Shown here: piece after piece, positions 48,108-61,925 of the stretch
How positions within the stretch are numbered: the first letter of the stretch is position 1
Layout of the letters: each line of letters begins with the position of its first letter
Virus record (IMG/VR): IMGVR_UViG_3300032053_000039
Location: 1 to 64,000 of that record
Length of the DNA: 64,000 nucleotides
Reading direction: 5' to 3' (one strand)
DNA from: a virus
Translations under genes and position numbers: made by a program
The notes under the pieces: model-generated
Databases searched by the model: none
What the model was told of the DNA's origin: nothing
Seen by the model: the letters and a program-made list of their open reading frames with translations, nothing else

Positions 48108-49132
48108 TTAATTTTCTCCCTTATTTCAAGTTTCTCCAGTATTTCAAGGTTAATTATATCTAATCCCTTAAGTATCCCTGATTTTGAAGAATTAAGAACG
48201 TATCTATGTGATACTTTAATCAAAGATAAGAGGAGCATAGCATAGTAACTAAATAATTTAGAGGTATAATAATCATTTTCTGTGTGAGGATCAAAGTACT
48301 TAAGTTCTTTTTTTACTTCATATTTTATAACTTCTTTTTTAGAAATTCCTAAGGCACGAGCTCTTCTTTCAAGATAGTCCTTACAATAATATTTTTTATG
48401 AGTATATGCTAGATCGTATCCTGATAAAATAATACAACTAGGATCAAGAAGAACCGATATTATAAACATTGCATTTCCGACCCATCCGTTATTTTGGACA
48501 TAAGGGTACTTTCTTGTCTTCCATGTCATTTTCTTTAGTACTAAATTTTTATATCGAATAGTATCTGATTGATTAAAAAATAATATTTTTCCTTTCCAGG
48601 CTTTTAGTGCTTCGGGGTTTAGTGTCGAAGATGCAACTAGTATTAAATCAGAAGTATCTAGATCATGCCAAAAGAATTTAATTAGTATTGATGGATCTAA
48701 AGATACTACAAGATTTGGTTTTATTTTATTTTTTAGACAATTATAAAGAACGGCATCTTGACAGATTATATAAAAATTGTGGGTCATTTTTTTAATAACC
48801 TTTATATCTTTATCAAGAGAAGGTCCATCTGCAAGAAGAATAACTGGTATGTTTCTTGATAATCTTTTCTTTAAGATTTCCAAAGAATCAACCCTTGTTG
48901 TTATTTTAAATATTCCTAATTTTAAATTTTCTGTGTAATTATCTCTCCATGTTTTTATAAAAGGATCTTTCTTTACCAATTCTATTTCTTTGGGTATTGA
49001 TCTTATTTCTTTTATACAGGAATAAATTAATTTTATACATTTTAATAAATAAAAAATAAAATTTATTCCAAACAGCTTAAGATACTTTATAGTTTTTTTG
49101 AAATATCTTTCCAATCTATTAAAGAACCACAT
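48104..49132 (-). CDS. DUF115/Maf (MptE-like) putative glycosyltransferase
   Basis: LADGPSLDKDI, ICQDAV, KPNLVVSLDP, SGYDLAY. Confidence 0.75.
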   Translation of the reverse strand: MWFFNRLERYFKKTIKYLKLFGINFIFYLLKCIKLIYSCIKEIRSIPKEIELVKKDPFIKTWRDNYTENLKLGIFKITTRVDSLEILKKRLSRNIPVILLADGPSLDKDIKVIKKMTHNFYIICQDAVLYNCLKNKIKPNLVVSLDPSILIKFFWHDLDTSDLILVASSTLNPEALKAWKGKILFFNQSDTIRYKNLVLKKMTWKTRKYPYVQNNGWVGNAMFIISVLLDPSCIILSGYDLAYTHKKYYCKDYLERRARALGISKKEVIKYEVKKELKYFDPHTENDYYTSKLFSYYAMLLLSLIKVSHRYVLNSSKSGILKGLDIINLEILEKLEIREKIK

Positions 49133-49593
49133 TTAGAACACTCCATAGTCCAAGCATCAATGATATTACTGCAGCTACATGTATAATCCCAATTTAGATA
49201 TTCTGTACCCATACCCTCTCTAACTTTCTTATATTTCGTAGGTGTAGCTAATTTAATTTCTTTTTTATCGGAAGAAAGACCTGGCTTTTTTATTTGTTTT
49301 AAATTTTCTACAACAGCATTAAAATATTTTAACGAATGCGTTTTAACTAATCCTTTTTCCCAATCTTCTTTAAAATATTTTACACATTCTACAAGTCTAT
49401 CTTTACCTACTTTTTCTACCAACATTGATATATTTGTTATCTTGTCCTGTTTCGTTATTTTTTTCTCTGCACCTTCTCTTTTAAATTTAGTATAATCGAA
49501 AAATGAATTATAAAATCTACAAACAATATCTCCATCTTCCCTTCCAAATGTTTTATGACAAAACTCTCTAAATCCTTCGAATACCTCTCTCAT
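49087..49593 (-). CDS. protein paralogous to the initiator C-terminus (helical domain plus zinc ribbon)
   Basis: SLKYFNAV and YTCSC...CSKCGSLIDW parallel TPKYFLEA and YVCKC...CSVCGTEVDY of the upstream gene. Confidence 0.65.
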   Translation of the reverse strand: MREVFEGFREFCHKTFGREDGDIVCRFYNSFFDYTKFKREGAEKKITKQDKITNISMLVEKVGKDRLVECVKYFKEDWEKGLVKTHSLKYFNAVVENLKQIKKPGLSSDKKEIKLATPTKYKKVREGMGTEYLNWDYTCSCSNIIDAWTMECSKCGSLIDWKDISKKL

Positions 49594-50777
49594 GAATAAA
49601 TCCTCTCACCTTCTTGTGTTACTAAATAGTCTACCTCCGTTCCACACACAGAACAGAATCTTAAATCATCATGAAGTTGTGTTTTATGACCACATTTACA
49701 AACATATACATAATTATCTTCAACAGGTTCTAAATGAGATGTGTCTTCAGGTACATTTCTTAGCAGGGCCTCTAGAAAATACTTAGGGGTTATCTTTCTT
49801 GAACAGATTCCAAGTGCAATGCTTCCTTCGATGGTTTCTATAGCTTCAAGTACTTTACTCAAAGTGAATCTATTTATCCAAGTTTCTAAAGATTCTAATC
49901 GAATAATATTTTTTTCAATTTTAGATTGTTTCCCGTACACCTCTATCCGTTGTAAAATATTAATTATCCTGTTGCTATTCTTAATTAAATCATTATAATA
50001 TATAGGTATACATCCATTGTTTTTATCTATTAAAAATTGAATAAGTCCCGCCGAGGTCAATTCTTTTAAACTTTCCTGAGTCCTTTCTTCTCTTAACTCT
50101 TCTAAGGAGTTCTCTTTCTCCCCCTCTTCTCTTTTAGGAATTCCTAAAGAGTTATCTTCCTGATGTTTTTTTTCTTCCCCAAAAAAAAGATCTGTAGTAA
50201 TCTCTGTAGTATTCTCTGTAGTAATCTTTGTATATGTATTACAGATTTCCGTAGGAGGGTCATACGGATTTCCGTATGAGGGTGGTACAGATTCTCGTAG
50301 GGGGGTGGTACGGATTTTTGTATGACCCCCCTTTTCGATATGATTATAAGTTATTTCAGTTATTCTTTCAACATTAGGTTCTACAAACATTACATTATAG
50401 AGCATTGTGTTTTTTACAAGTACTTGTCTAAATTCTACAGAAATAAGATTTAAACGTACTAATGTCTCAAATGAATCACGGACTTGCCTTTTGCTAGATC
50501 CAGTTAATTCAGCGTAATCACTATAGCTTTTCTGAAGTTTATCAGAATTGAATTTTTTTGATATTGATGCGATATCATCGGTTTGAGGATCTCTTGTGGT
50601 TGTAGGAGTATACCAATATCTAATATTGGCTAGTATATACGCAGCTAAGAAATCAGTAACTTTTTTTCCTTTAGTTGTTGTATATGTAATTGCTTTTAAC
50701 CAAGAAGGAGGTAGAATATCACCGGATATATTTAATTTTCCAATAGCATCTACAGTAGGTGTTGTATTTTTTATCAT
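49590..50777 (-). CDS. phage replication initiator (lambda-O/DnaD-like, winged-HTH N-domain)
   Basis: ILANIRYWY...LQKSYSDYAELTGSSKRQVRDSF HTH; internal iterons; ITTENTT linker; C-terminal zinc ribbon. Confidence 0.75.
   Translation of the reverse strand: MIKNTTPTVDAIGKLNISGDILPPSWLKAITYTTTKGKKVTDFLAAYILANIRYWYTPTTTRDPQTDDIASISKKFNSDKLQKSYSDYAELTGSSKRQVRDSFETLVRLNLISVEFRQVLVKNTMLYNVMFVEPNVERITEITYNHIEKGGHTKIRTTPLRESVPPSYGNPYDPPTEICNTYTKITTENTTEITTDLFFGEEKKHQEDNSLGIPKREEGEKENSLEELREERTQESLKELTSAGLIQFLIDKNNGCIPIYYNDLIKNSNRIINILQRIEVYGKQSKIEKNIIRLESLETWINRFTLSKVLEAIETIEGSIALGICSRKITPKYFLEALLRNVPEDTSHLEPVEDNYVYVCKCGHKTQLHDDLRFCSVCGTEVDYLVTQEGERIYS
50240..50331. repeat. four 23-bp iterons with dyad symmetry, candidate replication origin
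   Basis: units start at 50240, 50263, 50286, 50309; consensus TACRGATTYYYGTAKGR; unit 2 contains the perfect dyad TACGGA-TT-TCCGTA. Confidence 0.8.
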
Positions 50778-50965
50778 GAGTTCCTCTCGAGTTCATATGT
50801 TATATTTTTTATTTTTTCAGGGTTTGGTTTAACAAACATCACATTATAGAGTACTCCTCCTTTAATTTTTATATTTTTAAATTCTAATTTTACAATATCT
50901 AGAGATTCTAACGTATTAAATGATTCTCGAATTTGCTTTTTACTGAAATTTAATAATGAGGACAG
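50774..50965 (-). pseudogene. start-less fragment paralogous to the initiator wHTH
   Basis: LSSLLNFSKKQIRESFNTL...VLYNVMFVKPNPEKIKNITY vs Rep YAELTGSSKRQVRDSFETL...MLYNVMFVEPNVERITEITY; its TGA overlaps the Rep ATG. Confidence 0.7.
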
Positions 50966-50967
50966 GA

Positions 50968-51070
50968 TAAAATAAAAAACCTCCAGAAAGTACCACCTGT
51001 TTCCAGGTTCTGCTCGGTATTTCTGAAGGTTGAGGGCTATTACACCCTTAGATATGAGCAGAAAAACCTA
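50968..51070 (-). ncRNA. structured leader/attenuator RNA upstream of the initiator
   Basis: long stem with G-U pair, ACCUG-GAAA-CAGGU hairpin, AGGGU/GCCCU hairpin, UUCUGCUC/GAGCAGAA complement and U-tract. Confidence 0.6.
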
Positions 51071-51420
51071 AGAGTACAATAACGATATTACAAATTGTGA
51101 AATTTTATGTTTCTTATTCTTAAATACTAAAATAAGAGCTGTTTCGTCGGAATATTATAGATAGAGCGGTTTTAATTTTGGGTTCGATTCTGTTTTAGTC
51201 ATTATTTAATCTAATATGGTTCATCTATCTATGTTTTATATAGCAGGACGCTATTTTATAATAAATATCTGTCAATAGAATTTTTTTAAGTCCCCTGAAA
51301 AATATTCAGGAATGAACTTAAACTTACCTTTTCAGGTTAAAATTTTAATCAAATTTCATATAATTATATTAAACGCAATTATACATTTAATCAACATTTA
51401 ATAAATACGAGGTTCTTATC

Positions 51421-52389
51421 ATGGCAGAAGTAGTGAAAATAAATTCTAAAAAGGGTCTGGTTTCACTTACCCAGAAAGATATAGCCGAAAACGACTTGGC
51501 TTCCTGGTTGAGAACAAACTCTAAAGGTTTCGGTCATTATTCTTTTATTAATCAACAACCCTTTGAAAGGGTAGCAGCAAAACTTTTTGTGGATAAATAT
51601 CCTTCTACACATGTGAAGATAGCAGAAAGTATTGTATGTACAAAAGAAGGAGGTGTTGATGTATTTCTTAAAATCACAGATGATCAATCTCGAGGATTTT
51701 ATAACACTCATCCCACAAAGCTTGTATTCAATAAAGGAAAACAAACCGTTATTGATGATATCACAAAACATGGATCAGAAGAAGGAGTTTTGGATGTTAT
51801 AGAGGATGATGACTTGAAAGAAGACTTCGAAGATAATTCTTCTGATTATGAAGAATCTGCGGATGAGGAATTCTATGGTGAGATTGAAAATTTTCTTAGT
51901 GAAATAAAAAGTCTTTCTGAAGAAGATCTTATTAAAAAAGTATCTCCAGAAGAACTTGAAGAGATAAGTAAAATGTTAGATCTTGATAATAAATCAGAAT
52001 ACGAAGAAGACGAAGATTCTGAAAAGGAAGATTTGAAGGATGAAGATTTGGATGATATAGATATTGATTTAGAAGAAGAGGGAGACGAGAAAGAAGATGA
52101 AGAGGAAGAAGACGATTATGAGTATGAGGACGAAGAGGAGATTGGTGAGGATGAAAACGAGAAGGAAGATGATGATAATGACAACAATGATATCGAATTT
52201 GAGGAAGGCTTTATCGAATCTAAAGGGGATGATGGGATTCTTAAAGAAGTTAATCTCGAGGATTTCTCTGAAGATAAAGGGCCTGAAATAATTGAGATAG
52301 AAGGAAAGATTCCAGAAGAAAAAGGATCAATCGAAAAAGTTCCCTCTGATAAAATTCTCAGAGATTTAATAAAAGAAATTTTGGGGTAA
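51421..52389 (+). CDS. highly acidic protein
   Basis: C-terminal two-thirds dominated by D/E. Confidence 0.8.
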   Translation: MAEVVKINSKKGLVSLTQKDIAENDLASWLRTNSKGFGHYSFINQQPFERVAAKLFVDKYPSTHVKIAESIVCTKEGGVDVFLKITDDQSRGFYNTHPTKLVFNKGKQTVIDDITKHGSEEGVLDVIEDDDLKEDFEDNSSDYEESADEEFYGEIENFLSEIKSLSEEDLIKKVSPEELEEISKMLDLDNKSEYEEDEDSEKEDLKDEDLDDIDIDLEEEGDEKEDEEEEDDYEYEDEEEIGEDENEKEDDDNDNNDIEFEEGFIESKGDDGILKEVNLEDFSEDKGPEIIEIEGKIPEEKGSIEKVPSDKILRDLIKEILG

Positions 52390-57656: not shown

Positions 57657-60600
57657 GTGGCAGATGAACTAAAAAATGAAAATAGTCCTATTTCAGGTTA
57701 TCGAGATAATTTTGATATAATTCTACCAAGAGATGTTCATTCTGCAGCAGTACAAGATGATCGTGGAGATAAGCAGAGTACTTCTTCTTATACAGGAACA
57801 GTAAACACTTCTTCTTTTATGGGAATGCAGTCATCTGCTAATATACTGAGAAATCCTACTCGTAGATTTTATGATCCTGAAATTACTACTACAGCTATCT
57901 ATCTTCCCAAAGATATAAAAAGGAATAATAGATGGTGTCGATGGTTTTATGACCATGATGAAATGATTGGAGCTATTTTGGATGTTCATGCAGAACTTCC
58001 TTATTCTAGAGCAAAGTTACGAGTAGATGATCCTGTTATTCAAAGAGCTATTGATGAGTGCCTTGATAAAACAAATTTCTTTTCAATGCTTCCTTTGATT
58101 GATCTTGAATATATGAAAGTTGGAGAAGTCTTTATTTATACAAACTGGAGTGATTCTCTAGGAATGTGGGATAGTATTGTAATTCACAATCCTGACTTTA
58201 TTGAAGTTAAATATTCACCTTTTGCTGATAGAGATCCCGTATTAGAATTAACTCCAGACGAAGAACTTAGATCTTTGGTTCATTCAAGAAGACCTGAAGA
58301 CCAACAACTTAAAAAACGTCTTCCTCAGGATATTGTGAAAAGAGTACTTACGGGTAGAAATATCATGCTCAGCCCCAGTTGTACCACGCACATAGCTCGG
58401 AGAAGTAACCCTTATGATCTACGAGGTACTTCTATACTGCGCAGATTGTTCAGATTGCTCCAATATGAGGACAAACTTAGGGAAGCGCAGATTACGATTG
58501 CTGATAACTTTATTTACCCGCTGAAGATATTTAAACTTGGTGATGAAAATAAAGGATGGATACCGAATGCAAACCATCAGAAGGCTTTGGCTCAGATGCT
58601 TCAGCAGGCAAACTTTGACCCAAATTTTAGTTTGATATATCATTATGGTCTCAAAGTTGATATAATAACTGTAGCTGATAAGCTTATGAAAATGGATACT
58701 GAGTGGACCGAGATAAATAAAAAGAAATGCATGGCTCTTGGAATCAGTGAAGATTTTTTGATGAAAGGTGAGAATTACGCTTGTTTTACTGAAGGAACAC
58801 AAGTAACAACACCGGATGGTAAAAATAATATAGAGAACATTTCTAAAGATACTTTCGTTATTGATAAAAATGGAACTTCACAGAAGGTACTTGATAATTG
58901 GTGTGAAGGAGTACCTGAAACTTTAGTTAATATTAAATTATGGGGTGGAAAAGAATTTCAATGCACTTCTAATCACAAATGGCCGATATGGGCATGGCCT
59001 AGGAACTGTGCTTGTGGTTGCGGGAAAGAAATTAAGACTGGAAAGATGTATGCTCACTCTGGAGCTCGTATTGGAGGAAGAACTGAAAATAAAGTTATTT
59101 TTAATAAAGTATCTTTTGTAAAATGTTTTGGCCACACGACAGTAGCAGGACTTCCTGAAGGATATGATCCTAATATTACTCTTCAAGCATCTGAAATTAA
59201 AAAATATGATTATTTGATGATTCCCCGAAAGTTTTCTGAAATTAAGACAAACACATCCAGGGAGCAAGCACGATTGTTAGGATACTTCTTGGCTGAGGGT
59301 AACTATTCAAAACATCATACGACAAAGGAATTAACTGGGATTAATTTAACTTTTAATGTTAAAGAAAAAGATACCTTAGTGAAAGATGCTTTAGACCTTT
59401 GTAAAAAGATTGGATTGCCTATTGTTCAAATTGAAGAAAACAATAAAAAGAATACAATACGTTTACGTTCTGCAAATAGATTAGAATTCAAAGATCTTAT
59501 TATATGGTTTAAGAAAAGTGCTGGGGAATACTCTTATGGTAAGAAATTATCTGAAGATATTATGAGATGGCCCCTTTTCTTAAAGGAAGAATTAATTAAG
59601 GGAATATTTAGAGGGGATGGTAGTCAGACATCCAAAGTAGTTATGTATACTACAACATCTGAAGTTTTGGCGTATCAAGTGGAACTTATACTAGCACAGT
59701 TAGGATTTATTGCTAATTGGACAATACAGAATAACAGGATAAGAAATTTAACTAGTGTTTATAAAAGGAGAACAACCTATCGATTAGATTTTCATGGTAA
59801 ATTTGCACTTGATCTGGCTAACTTGGTTTGGGGAGAAGATTCAAAAGTGCTAGATGAAACAGAGAAAAAGTTTCAATGTCAAAAAGCGTGGGTTGATGAT
59901 AATTATGTATACGTTATGGTTAAATCGGTTGAAGTAGTAAAAAATACCAAGAAAGTCTATAATCTTACTGTAGAGAATTCTCATAGTTACTTAGTACATA
60001 ATATAGGAACATTTAATTCTGCCAATGTTGGATTACAAATGGCACTGGCACGATATAAAGCAAAAAGGGATCTTTTTGAAATAAAATTTTTACGAGATAA
60101 ATTTTTAAGAGTAATGGCTGAGAAGAATGGATGGTATCAGAGGGATGCCAGGGAAATAGTAGGTCAGTATCGAGTAACAAGAAAAGGAGAAGAACTTAAC
60201 AAAAGACTTATTCTACCTCAGATAATATGGGATAAGAAATTAGTTCTACGAGATGATCAGCAATATCTTACCTTTTTAAATAATGTTTATTCTAATGGAA
60301 AAGGTCCCGTATCTGTATTAACAATGTTGACAGCAATGGGACTTACTTTAGAGGAAGAATTATCGAATAAAGAAAAGCAGAGAGAGCTGGAAGAAAAATT
60401 TGGAGTAAAATCGATTGCGCCTTTACCTGGAGGGCAAGGAGCTCCATTAGGAGCAATGGCTTCAAAAATAATGGATAGATTAAAGTTCGGTAAGAAGAAA
60501 GAAGCTCGTATGGATGAACCGCCCACATTAAAACCAGATGGAGATTTTGTTACACTGGATAATATAAAAGAATACGGAACTTATACTCAGGAAGATGAAA

Positions 60601-61925
60601 ATAATTATGCAGTAGAAATATCAAAAGATTTAATACTAATAGATGATCAGGACTGGAAGAAAAGTTTACAATCTAAAAATGTACCTCAAGAAGTCATAAC
60701 GATACTTTCAAACTACAATGATAAACTGGAAGTAACCTATAAAAGATCAAATGGAAAATTTGCTTCAGAGATACAAGCAACAGGAAAAGAAATTTCAGAT
60801 GTATTGGGTAGAATATATCTTCAGGGAAAACTTTGGGCATATGGATCCACCAACTTTTTGCAGGTATCAAGAAATGTCTATGCCAGGGAAATAAAAGATT
60901 TCTCAGATATATTGATGGTAGAAGAATTCAGGAGCTGGGTAGATCTTATAGCCTCAGCTGACATGGATAAGTCAGCCATATTGAAAAATCTTAGAACACT
61001 GGGGAATACCTGCTTTTCTTATGGTCAATTGAAGGGGTATCAAGAGCAAGGGATAGAAACAGCAAAATTAAGTAATGTTATAGAGAATGACGGTATAAGA
61101 TATGAGATACTAGATTTGCTTACTAAACGGCACAATCTTGCTTCGTTGATATCTCCTCGGGGGGATATTATACTCTTTTCTGGATGTATTGAAGGAAATG
61201 AAACAGTAGATCCTCATATAGAACGATACAAAGATTTTATATCTAACGGAATACGAGTATCTTCTTGCCCTGTTGAGTTTATTAGGCCTACAAAACAATA
61301 CTTAGATAAAGTAGGAAGAGTTCTTAAAAAGAAATACGATACAATCTATTTCGTGCCGGATGTTATAGATTTACCTGAATGGGAAGAACATACTAAAAAG
61401 GCAATAGAAAAGGATCTTATAGATCTTGATAAGAATGCCCGATCTTTATCAATTTCTTCTTCTTTAATGTATGAAAAGCTTAAAAAAAGAGGAAATCTCG
61501 CCATATTTAATAATGGTAGGCATCTTTATGTATCTAATTGGATAGGTACTCAAGATAAATCTATTATTGATAATCTTATAAAGCATGTTGATATTTACCA
61601 GGAAATCGAGAAATCTATAGATAAAGCTTTTGAGAAAAAAGCATATGATCTTACCAGAAACGAACTAGAAACGTATCGGGTTTTTGGATACATAGAACCT
61701 ATAATGCGAAATTCAGAAGTTATTGGATGGAGAGCTGTAGATTCTGGAGAAGAAAGATCTAATGAAAAGATAAAGTTTGGAAAAGCTTGGGATTCTGAAG
61801 GTATTTGTATTAATGAAACAGATCAAGATTCAAAATCATTCTTCTTTGATAATTTAAAATTATGGATAGAATACCCTCATAAACTAGAGGAGTCAACAGT
61901 ACAGAGCTTTAACAAAATATTCTAA
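57657..61925 (+). CDS. portal protein with intein and long C-terminal extension
   Basis: FYDHDEMIGAILDVHAELP, YMKVGEVF, HIARRSNPYDLRGTSIL, KCMALGISEDFL; upstream of the prohead protease. Confidence 0.75.
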   Translation: MADELKNENSPISGYRDNFDIILPRDVHSAAVQDDRGDKQSTSSYTGTVNTSSFMGMQSSANILRNPTRRFYDPEITTTAIYLPKDIKRNNRWCRWFYDHDEMIGAILDVHAELPYSRAKLRVDDPVIQRAIDECLDKTNFFSMLPLIDLEYMKVGEVFIYTNWSDSLGMWDSIVIHNPDFIEVKYSPFADRDPVLELTPDEELRSLVHSRRPEDQQLKKRLPQDIVKRVLTGRNIMLSPSCTTHIARRSNPYDLRGTSILRRLFRLLQYEDKLREAQITIADNFIYPLKIFKLGDENKGWIPNANHQKALAQMLQQANFDPNFSLIYHYGLKVDIITVADKLMKMDTEWTEINKKKCMALGISEDFLMKGENYACFTEGTQVTTPDGKNNIENISKDTFVIDKNGTSQKVLDNWCEGVPETLVNIKLWGGKEFQCTSNHKWPIWAWPRNCACGCGKEIKTGKMYAHSGARIGGRTENKVIFNKVSFVKCFGHTTVAGLPEGYDPNITLQASEIKKYDYLMIPRKFSEIKTNTSREQARLLGYFLAEGNYSKHHTTKELTGINLTFNVKEKDTLVKDALDLCKKIGLPIVQIEENNKKNTIRLRSANRLEFKDLIIWFKKSAGEYSYGKKLSEDIMRWPLFLKEELIKGIFRGDGSQTSKVVMYTTTSEVLAYQVELILAQLGFIANWTIQNNRIRNLTSVYKRRTTYRLDFHGKFALDLANLVWGEDSKVLDETEKKFQCQKAWVDDNYVYVMVKSVEVVKNTKKVYNLTVENSHSYLVHNIGTFNSANVGLQMALARYKAKRDLFEIKFLRDKFLRVMAEKNGWYQRDAREIVGQYRVTRKGEELNKRLILPQIIWDKKLVLRDDQQYLTFLNNVYSNGKGPVSVLTMLTAMGLTLEEELSNKEKQRELEEKFGVKSIAPLPGGQGAPLGAMASKIMDRLKFGKKKEARMDEPPTLKPDGDFVTLDNIKEYGTYTQEDENNYAVEISKDLILIDDQDWKKSLQSKNVPQEVITILSNYNDKLEVTYKRSNGKFASEIQATGKEISDVLGRIYLQGKLWAYGSTNFLQVSRNVYAREIKDFSDILMVEEFRSWVDLIASADMDKSAILKNLRTLGNTCFSYGQLKGYQEQGIETAKLSNVIENDGIRYEILDLLTKRHNLASLISPRGDIILFSGCIEGNETVDPHIERYKDFISNGIRVSSCPVEFIRPTKQYLDKVGRVLKKKYDTIYFVPDVIDLPEWEEHTKKAIEKDLIDLDKNARSLSISSSLMYEKLKKRGNLAIFNNGRHLYVSNWIGTQDKSIIDNLIKHVDIYQEIEKSIDKAFEKKAYDLTRNELETYRVFGYIEPIMRNSEVIGWRAVDSGEERSNEKIKFGKAWDSEGICINETDQDSKSFFFDNLKLWIEYPHKLEESTVQSFNKIF
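58782..60017 (+). mobile_element. LAGLIDADG intein in portal (412 aa)
   Basis: starts CFTEGTQV, CTSNH, LLGYFLAEG and LIKGIFRGDG, VYNLTVENSHSY, ends GTFN before Ser. Confidence 0.88.

Follow-up and report, generated by a model that had tools for sequence, protein, structure and literature searches.

A predicted terminator hairpin and a complementary neighbouring hairpin in the leader of a phage replication operon

The locus and its replication genes

What is the role of a strongly structured stretch of the minus strand that lies between a divergent promoter region and the first replication gene of a phage? The question is raised by an uncultivated phage from sediment, represented by a 77.4-kb IMG/VR virus record whose completeness is approximately 32% according to CheckV. 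The DNA analysed here, referred to as the window, corresponds to the first 64 kb of this record and has a G+C content of approximately 30%. Near 51 kb, both the coding strand and the GC skew flip. Profile matches identified the minus-strand genes to the left of this switch as the replication arm of the genome, which encodes a ribonucleotide reductase, a family A DNA polymerase, a DnaB-type helicase, a primase, SbcC, SbcD and an MptE-like protein. A phage RNA polymerase was not seen within the 64-kb window. Several of the replication-arm genes bear inteins, and the genome as a whole is intein-rich at 3949-34025 and 57657-61925, where Intein/Hint domains are accompanied by homing-endonuclease domains. 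The intein hosts are the ribonucleotide reductase, DNA polymerase A, the DnaB helicase, the primase, a ResIII helicase and a 1422-aa plus-strand protein.

The structured element is situated in a 640-nt intergenic region that separates the initiator gene from a divergent plus-strand gene starting at 51421. It lies at the head of the replication arm, where the GC skew reaches its minimum and the coding strand switches; the initiator ATG is approximately 190-200 nt downstream, and a set of iterons 650-750 bp away. An earlier reading of the sequence at 50968-51070 had proposed an RNA that gates the initiator. The position of the element agrees with this proposal, as a minus-strand RNA structure ending in a predicted intrinsic terminator is found between the divergent promoter region and the initiator gene.

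The first gene of the arm (49590-50777, minus strand) encodes a DnaD/O-like replication initiator of 395 aa. The protein matched PHROG 270 (2.3e-10) and the O-like PHROG 678 (4.8e-06) and has DnaD-named homologues, and a Pfam search of the initiator gave no match. Along with these profile matches, the gene was found to contain iterons. A tandem-repeat search revealed 3.4-4 copies of a 23-bp iteron (50240-50317) and 3.5 copies of a 12-bp repeat (50191-50232), all inside the initiator gene. Both arrays are located within 50191-50331, which is the likely origin, and the period of 23 bp is not divisible by 3. The best sigma-70-like site in a 20-kb scan (50343-50371, minus strand; TTGAAA-17-TATAAT, 11 of 12 positions) was also present inside the initiator ORF, directly upstream of the iterons and pointing across them. 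This site could drive transcription through the origin, or could be a chance occurrence in AT-rich DNA. A 168-aa ORF (49087-49593, minus strand) overlaps the end of the initiator gene. Any paralogy between this ORF and the initiator would be weak, because only a short CxC...CxxC zinc-ribbon-like stretch is shared with the initiator C-terminus (E = 0.029 for the pair).

Structure of the element

The minimum-energy and centroid folds of 116-, 131- and 301-nt stretches of the minus strand agreed in giving two neighbouring hairpins, which we designate HP1 and HP2. HP1 (51036-51083) has an 18-bp stem, with its 5' arm at 51083-51066 and its 3' arm at 51053-51036, and a 12-nt loop, UUUUCUGCUCAU (51065-51054). 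A 4-nt linker, CCUC (51032-51035), identical in the relative locus L002 described below, leads to HP2 (50978-51031), which was present in every fold. The lower stem of HP2 consists of 16 bp with one bulged C, formed by AACCUUCAGAAAUACC (51031-51016) and GGUAC-UUUCUGGAGGUU (50994-50978). Above this stem, the 5' side carries a 7-nt internal loop, GAGCAGA (51015-51009), and an upper stem of 5 bp (ACCUG/CAGGU, 51008-51004 with 50999-50995) is closed by a GAAA tetraloop of the GNRA type (51003-51000). Directly after HP2 comes a U-rich tract, UUUUAUUUUAU (50967-50977), which is also kept in L002 and which reads UUUUUUAUUUU when the two U from the A-U pairs at the base of HP2 are counted in. The 16-bp stem enclosing GAGCAGA and the GNRA hairpin, as well as the U-rich run behind it, are located on the minus strand exactly where the original prediction had placed them. 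The sequence also bears out a further point of that prediction, namely that the octamer UUCUGCUC (51063-51056), present in the HP1 loop, is exactly complementary to GAGCAGAA (51015-51008) in HP2. Concerning an AGGGU/GCCCU hairpin that had been drawn upstream of the terminator stem, neither the minimum-energy nor the centroid fold contains such a structure. The 5' half of the proposed hairpin forms part of the 3' arm of HP1, and HP1, with a stability of -16.4 kcal/mol and with covariation to back it, takes its place, extending beyond the stretch originally delimited (50968-51070).

The stability of HP2 was calculated at -25.1 kcal/mol and that of the whole 131 nt at -42.9 kcal/mol, with pair probabilities of 0.96-0.99 in HP1. 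HP2 displays the two hallmarks of an intrinsic terminator, a stable G+C-containing hairpin and a U-tract directly behind it, and we predict that HP2 and its U-tract constitute a strong intrinsic terminator.

The fold is specific to the minus strand. The 116-nt stretch folded at -34.9 kcal/mol on the minus strand (z = -3.07 against shuffles) and at -27.3 kcal/mol on the plus strand (z = -1.43). HP1 is weak on the plus strand (-3.8 kcal/mol) because its five G-U pairs become A-C mismatches there, and the mirrored hairpin on the plus strand has no U-tract behind it. A strand asymmetry due to G-U pairs had been anticipated. The minus-strand specificity itself was borne out, but the terminator stem contains one G-U pair and not the two that had been counted, and the asymmetry derives mainly from the five pairs in HP1.

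Conservation in related loci

Two relative loci, L002 and L003, were found in JGI metagenomes. Together with the window they make up the three lineages in which the element is present, two of which differ very little. Among IMG/VR viral contigs, there was no match with the initiator protein, its alignment, three DNA patterns covering the element and promoter, or the divergent 322-aa protein. A blastn search of the phage collection gave short coding matches only, and a pattern scan of genome contigs gave no match.

The initiator of L002 is 85% identical to that of the window, and its element differs at four positions in 106 nt, all of which are compatible with the structure. Two changes convert a G-U pair to an A-U pair, one in HP1 (51067) and one in HP2 (50983). 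A third, at 51002, converts the GAAA loop to GCAA, which is still a GNRA loop. The fourth, an A to G change at 51008, turns GAGCAGAA into GAGCAGAG, with a U-G pair to the HP1 loop retained. Identity to L002 is 96% in the element, 89% in the remainder of the leader and 83% in the downstream remnant of a gene described below. In terms of numbers, there are four changes in the 106 nt of the element, as opposed to 49 changes over 353 nt of flanking sequence (Fisher p = 0.003). Loops and linker are conserved between the window and L002 as well as the stems are. At 51002, 51008 and 51067, contigs of three additional runs, which belong to other studies (freshwater sediment, soil), show the same alleles as L002.

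In L003, the initiator is 51% identical to that of the window and the divergent promoter block is almost unchanged. At the same relative place as HP1, this locus harbours an 18-bp hairpin with an 11-nt loop and a different sequence. When the three HP1 sequences were aligned, 54 of 54 cells were paired, with four compensatory and six one-sided changes and no broken pair, the covariation being contributed by one divergent sequence (L003); slid controls gave 35-50%. The seven pairs at the base of HP2 (AAUCUUC/GAAGGUU) are retained in L003 by a second and longer hairpin, whose interior is unrelated, and the tract that follows this hairpin, AACAUUUUAU, is a poor U-tract. Covariation across homologous leaders had been named as a check on the original prediction. 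It was found in HP1, but did not extend to the loop complement, which is absent in L003, the best match to the HP1 loop there being 5 bp (-5.1 kcal/mol). As L003 has neither a loop complement nor a clean U-tract, neither a kissing contact between the hairpins nor termination is conserved group-wide. When a covariance model of the window and L002 sequences was applied to L003, the score in the right orientation was 13.7 bits, which is not significant (E = 0.16); the model detected no second copy of the element in the window.

The pattern of changes in HP1 bears on the possibility that the element acts at the level of DNA, its inverted repeats serving an origin as single-strand hairpins, cruciforms or protein-binding palindromes. 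The location at the GC-skew minimum and strand switch, within 650-750 bp of the iterons, would suit such a role, and in L003, HP1 is almost a perfect palindrome and gives a score on either strand. We nevertheless consider a DNA element highly improbable. The sequence of HP1 varies with its pairing kept, whereas in a protein-binding palindrome one would expect the sequence itself to be preserved, and the tetraloop is kept as GAAA or GCAA. The G-U pairs, five in HP1 and one in HP2, are A-C mismatches on the other strand, and a U-tract follows the hairpin on one strand only. Finally, the iterons marking the likely origin lie elsewhere.

Between the element and the initiator gene, the minus strand of the window holds a start-less gene remnant (50774-50965), whose translation identifies it as a paralog of the N-terminal winged-helix domain of the initiator. 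Of a gene of 137 aa, it lacks the ribosome-binding site and the start, along with approximately the first 80 codons. A contig from run X11 has 271 extra letters at 50957-50967 relative to the window. In L002 the counterpart (430-843) is an intact gene, whose 137-aa product is 40% identical to the initiator N-terminal domain (E = 1e-29) and which starts approximately 20 nt past the U-tract. This distance leaves no room for a promoter between the U-tract and the gene, and read-through of HP2 must therefore occur in L002. Among the runs that contain the stretch, none is on record as RNA. One run guessed to be RNA (X24) contained a 178-nt contig with a depth of 3.2, covering 50967-51070 and 74 nt of the L002-type gene; this contig may be DNA and is neutral with respect to expression and read-through.

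Distant relatives of the initiator, identified by a search with the initiator alignment, occur in two Clostridiales MAGs (L004 and L005). Their genes display a repressor-promoter-small-gene layout without the leader described here. At L004:2560-2680 and L005:2570-2690, a repressor-like gene is oriented divergently, and a TTGACA...TATACT promoter is flanked by repeated AAGTTATAACTT-like operators, an arrangement that looks like a temperate-phage switch. A 2592-nt contig of run X11, aligned on 50523-50639 and 51317-51491, keeps the initiator N-terminus and the divergent promoter block, with 502 different letters replacing the 677-nt leader.

The upstream leader

The leader upstream of HP1, with a candidate promoter, occupies 51084-51290 (minus strand). 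In the three-lineage alignment, an A-tract, a TTGACA box (51275-51270) and a TAAAAT box (51258-51253) are conserved throughout, and TTGACA/TAAAAT may represent the promoter. A sigma-70 scan did not flag a minus-strand promoter in the leader, and the TTGACA contexts across the genome shared no motif. The divergent promoter block next to the leader contains, on the minus strand, an 8-bp inverted repeat composed of CCTGAAAA (51336-51329) and TTTTCAGG (51301-51294). The block, with this repeat at 51294-51336, is 96% identical to that of L002 and largely kept in L003, the relative with 51% identity, and is more conserved than the initiator protein.

Several short signals were considered within the leader. 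The heptamer GCUCUUA (51139-51133, minus strand) occurs seven times in the 77-kb record, counting both strands, and is kept in L002. It is absent at the aligned place in L003. We take GCUCUUA to resemble the core of lambda boxA, and its combination with the 5-bp GNRA hairpin provides a weak lead towards a nut-like site. A leader peptide was rejected, as the short frame beginning ATGAACCA... is not conserved, its length being 9 codons in the window as against 33 in L002 and approximately 70 in L003. Sequestration of a GGAGG Shine-Dalgarno motif in the 3' arm of HP2 was also rejected; the motif is GAAGG in both L002 and L003, and there is no start codon at a usable distance. Iteron-like words in the leader amounted to two 8-mers, which is chance level.

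The loop complement

The complementarity between UUCUGCUC and GAGCAGAA had been interpreted as a switch, with the two octamers forming an alternative helix. When this nested helix was forced, the energy of the fold was -25.7 kcal/mol versus -42.9 kcal/mol, a cost of about +17 kcal/mol, and the pair probability was zero. In stepwise folds of the growing transcript, HP1 was stable throughout and the 5' arm of HP2 stayed unpaired until its partner emerged. No nested antiterminator was observed in any of these folds. A classical attenuator contains a mutually exclusive helix that sequesters a terminator arm, and the element was found to have none. The switch-like nested helix was accordingly given up.

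The two-hairpin fold suggests another role for the 8-nt complement, that of a kissing or pseudoknot contact from the HP1 loop to the HP2 internal loop. The potential contact comprises 7 bp, or 8 bp with the A-U pair that closes the upper stem opened. With 18 bp in HP1 and 16 bp plus the bulge in HP2, the two hairpins would be of near-equal height, and with their bases joined by 4 nt the geometry is probably favourable. We estimated how readily such a complement arises by chance. In a random sequence of 123 nt with the same composition, an exact 8-nt self-complement is common (P ~0.68). The figure for a 7-nt internal loop that is fully complementary to a neighbouring 12-nt loop is P ~0.0013-0.0017, and is a post hoc one. 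Among duplex partners of the HP1 loop within 470-700 nt, the GAGCAGA(A) site was the best in both lineages, with -13.2 kcal/mol in the window and -12.9 kcal/mol in L002. The octamers are present elsewhere in the 77-kb record at chance frequency.

These figures cut both ways with respect to the simplest explanation of the element, in which HP2 is a plain constitutive terminator, HP1 protects or insulates the RNA, the complement is incidental, and the genes are expressed through unregulated leak or a phage-induced general antitermination. A plain terminator would account for the lack of a nested antiterminator and for L003, which has neither the loop complement nor a clean U-tract. In AT-rich sequence, exact self-complements of 8 nt arise often (P ~0.68), and strong terminators are hardly affected by simple hairpins (preprint 10.64898/2026.06.17.733018). 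What makes this explanation unlikely in our view is that not just any octamer but the entire 7-nt internal loop is complementary to the loop of the adjacent hairpin (P ~0.001-0.002), and that the sole change of the complement in L002 keeps the pairing as U-G. Moreover, loops and linker are conserved like the stems, which a mere terminator would not need.

Searches for known RNA families

No Rfam family matched the window at gathering scores. In a permissive search of 50500-51500 (E <= 10), only Phe_leader, PVT1_7, FTX_2 and S15 were returned, all far below their thresholds. The likeness to Phe_leader (23.6 bits) is to the terminator part of that family, and fits the reading of HP2 as a terminator. 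No aptamer was recognised in the element by the Rfam searches. The resemblance to P1 C4 and P4 CI RNAs that had been noted at the outset gained nothing from these searches, as the gathering scores yielded no match and C4 did not appear even at E <= 10.

These results concern a third possibility, a trans-acting small RNA of the P4 CI/P1 C4 kind. Here the accumulated leader would pair, via the HP1 loop or GAGCAGA, with nascent leaders or with the initiator ribosome-binding region, and would thereby enforce termination or block translation as negative feedback on replication. Both complementary sites do lie in single-stranded loops of a stable RNA that brings its own terminator, and the genes to be controlled are replication genes, as in P4. 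In both lineages, furthermore, the second-best partner of the HP1 loop was the initiator Shine-Dalgarno region, GAGAGGAA, with -6.7 and -8.3 kcal/mol. This pairing with the ribosome-binding region is weak, however, and falls in the chance range for a search of 470-700 nt. Taking into account that the C4 model of Rfam remained without a match even at E <= 10, and that there are no other copies of the target in the 77-kb record and no second copy of the element in the window, we regard a trans-acting RNA as decidedly doubtful.

Discussion

The reading that we favour, with moderate confidence, is that the element is a cis-acting, lineage-specific terminator or attenuator in the 5' leader of the replication operon. 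It is preferred because of the stability of the structure, its strand specificity and position, its conservation beyond that of the flanks, the covariation in HP1 and the read-through required in L002. Most transcripts from the upstream promoter would stop at approximately 50970 by default, leaving a short structured RNA. Only the read-through fraction would reach the winged-helix paralog, where intact, the initiator and the genes behind it. In this manner the element would set, and perhaps regulate, the dose of the initiator.

Within the leader-terminator reading, we tentatively propose that the HP1 loop pairs with the HP2 internal loop (7-8 bp) once the latter has been transcribed, and that this pairing tunes termination. 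The contact between the loops, or the close upstream hairpin alone, would hinder closure of the terminator stem and set the level of read-through, and termination would return if some factor masked one of the loops. A protein, a second RNA or a ligand could serve as the signal, or there may be none. The proposal is weakened by L003, in which the complement is missing. Given the high stability of HP2, HP1 by itself may be without effect, because plain hairpins had little effect on stable terminators in the preprint on tug-of-war switches (preprint 10.64898/2026.06.17.733018).

A more far-reaching version, which we think rather unlikely, is a self-contained kissing attenuator. The HP1 loop would capture the HP2 internal loop co-transcriptionally and trap the 5' arm, allowing read-through into the replication arm of approximately 50 kb, and a factor or the accumulated short RNA would compete for the contact and bring about shut-down. 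If true, this way of controlling a terminator would form a class of its own, akin in principle to the guanidine-IV riboswitch and the tug-of-war mechanism but acting as a controller of replication dose. More generally, if the loop contact controls termination, the element would be a natural case of terminator control without a competing helix, located at the entry to the replication genes of a large phage, and would provide a compact RNA part of approximately 120 nt. The only switches for which such control has been proposed to date are guanidine-IV riboswitches and tug-of-war switches. If the contact is inert, the element would be an ordinary leader terminator in a rare lineage of uncultivated phages, with a value for local annotation.

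Several known systems can be compared with the element. In phage lambda, the nut sites, consisting of boxA and a boxB hairpin with a GNRA-like loop, lie ahead of tR1 and the O and P genes. The present leader likewise combines a 5-bp GNRA-type hairpin and the boxA-like GCUCUUA in an early leader, before a terminator and replication genes. Unlike in lambda, the GNRA hairpin is nested inside the terminator, approximately 120 nt from the boxA-like heptamer, and no N-like protein was identified. In the plasmids pT181, pIP501 and pAMbeta1, a leader terminator of the replication initiator gene sets the dose of the initiator by attenuation driven by antisense RNA. A terminator in the leader of an initiator gene is common to these plasmids and the phage studied here. 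Their mechanism, however, requires a countertranscript and a pre-emptor helix, whereas in the phage HP1 is unstable on the plus strand (-3.8 kcal/mol), and there is neither a plus-strand terminator nor a nested alternative helix.

In phage P4, CI is linked to premature termination ahead of the replication genes. Like P4 CI and the C4 RNA of P1/P7, the element would be a short structured phage RNA in the leader of its own operon, with segments that are predicted to be exposed and that may pair within the same transcript. It differs in having one complementary pair where C4 and CI have two, in holding both partners inside one compact structure, and in showing neither a covariance-model match nor a convincing complement of a ribosome-binding site.

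The closest mechanistic parallels involve terminators that are hindered without a competing helix. In the tug-of-war mechanism, structures located 0-4 nt upstream of intrinsic terminators reduce termination; a plain hairpin placed upstream hardly affects terminators that are stable, and termination gains from longer spacers (preprint 10.64898/2026.06.17.733018). The stable HP1, with a spacer of 4 nt and no sequence overlap with the terminator, falls within this range of distances. On the other hand, the natural cases described there are ZTP aptamers and HP1 is a plain hairpin, and the terminators on which simple hairpins acted in that work were weaker than HP2 (-25 kcal/mol). In the guanidine-IV (mepA) riboswitch, the terminator hairpin is itself part of the aptamer, and it has been proposed that a kissing complex keeps the outer terminator pairs from forming and so leads to read-through (PMC7736828). 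The partner in that riboswitch is a terminal loop, whereas here it is the internal loop of the terminator, with 7-8 bp; the present element also differs in being without an Rfam family match and in preceding genes for phage replication. In their architecture, the two RNAs are alike. Each consists of a hairpin and, behind it, a terminator hairpin; unpaired nucleotides of one are complementary to those of the other, and a classical antiterminator helix is absent.
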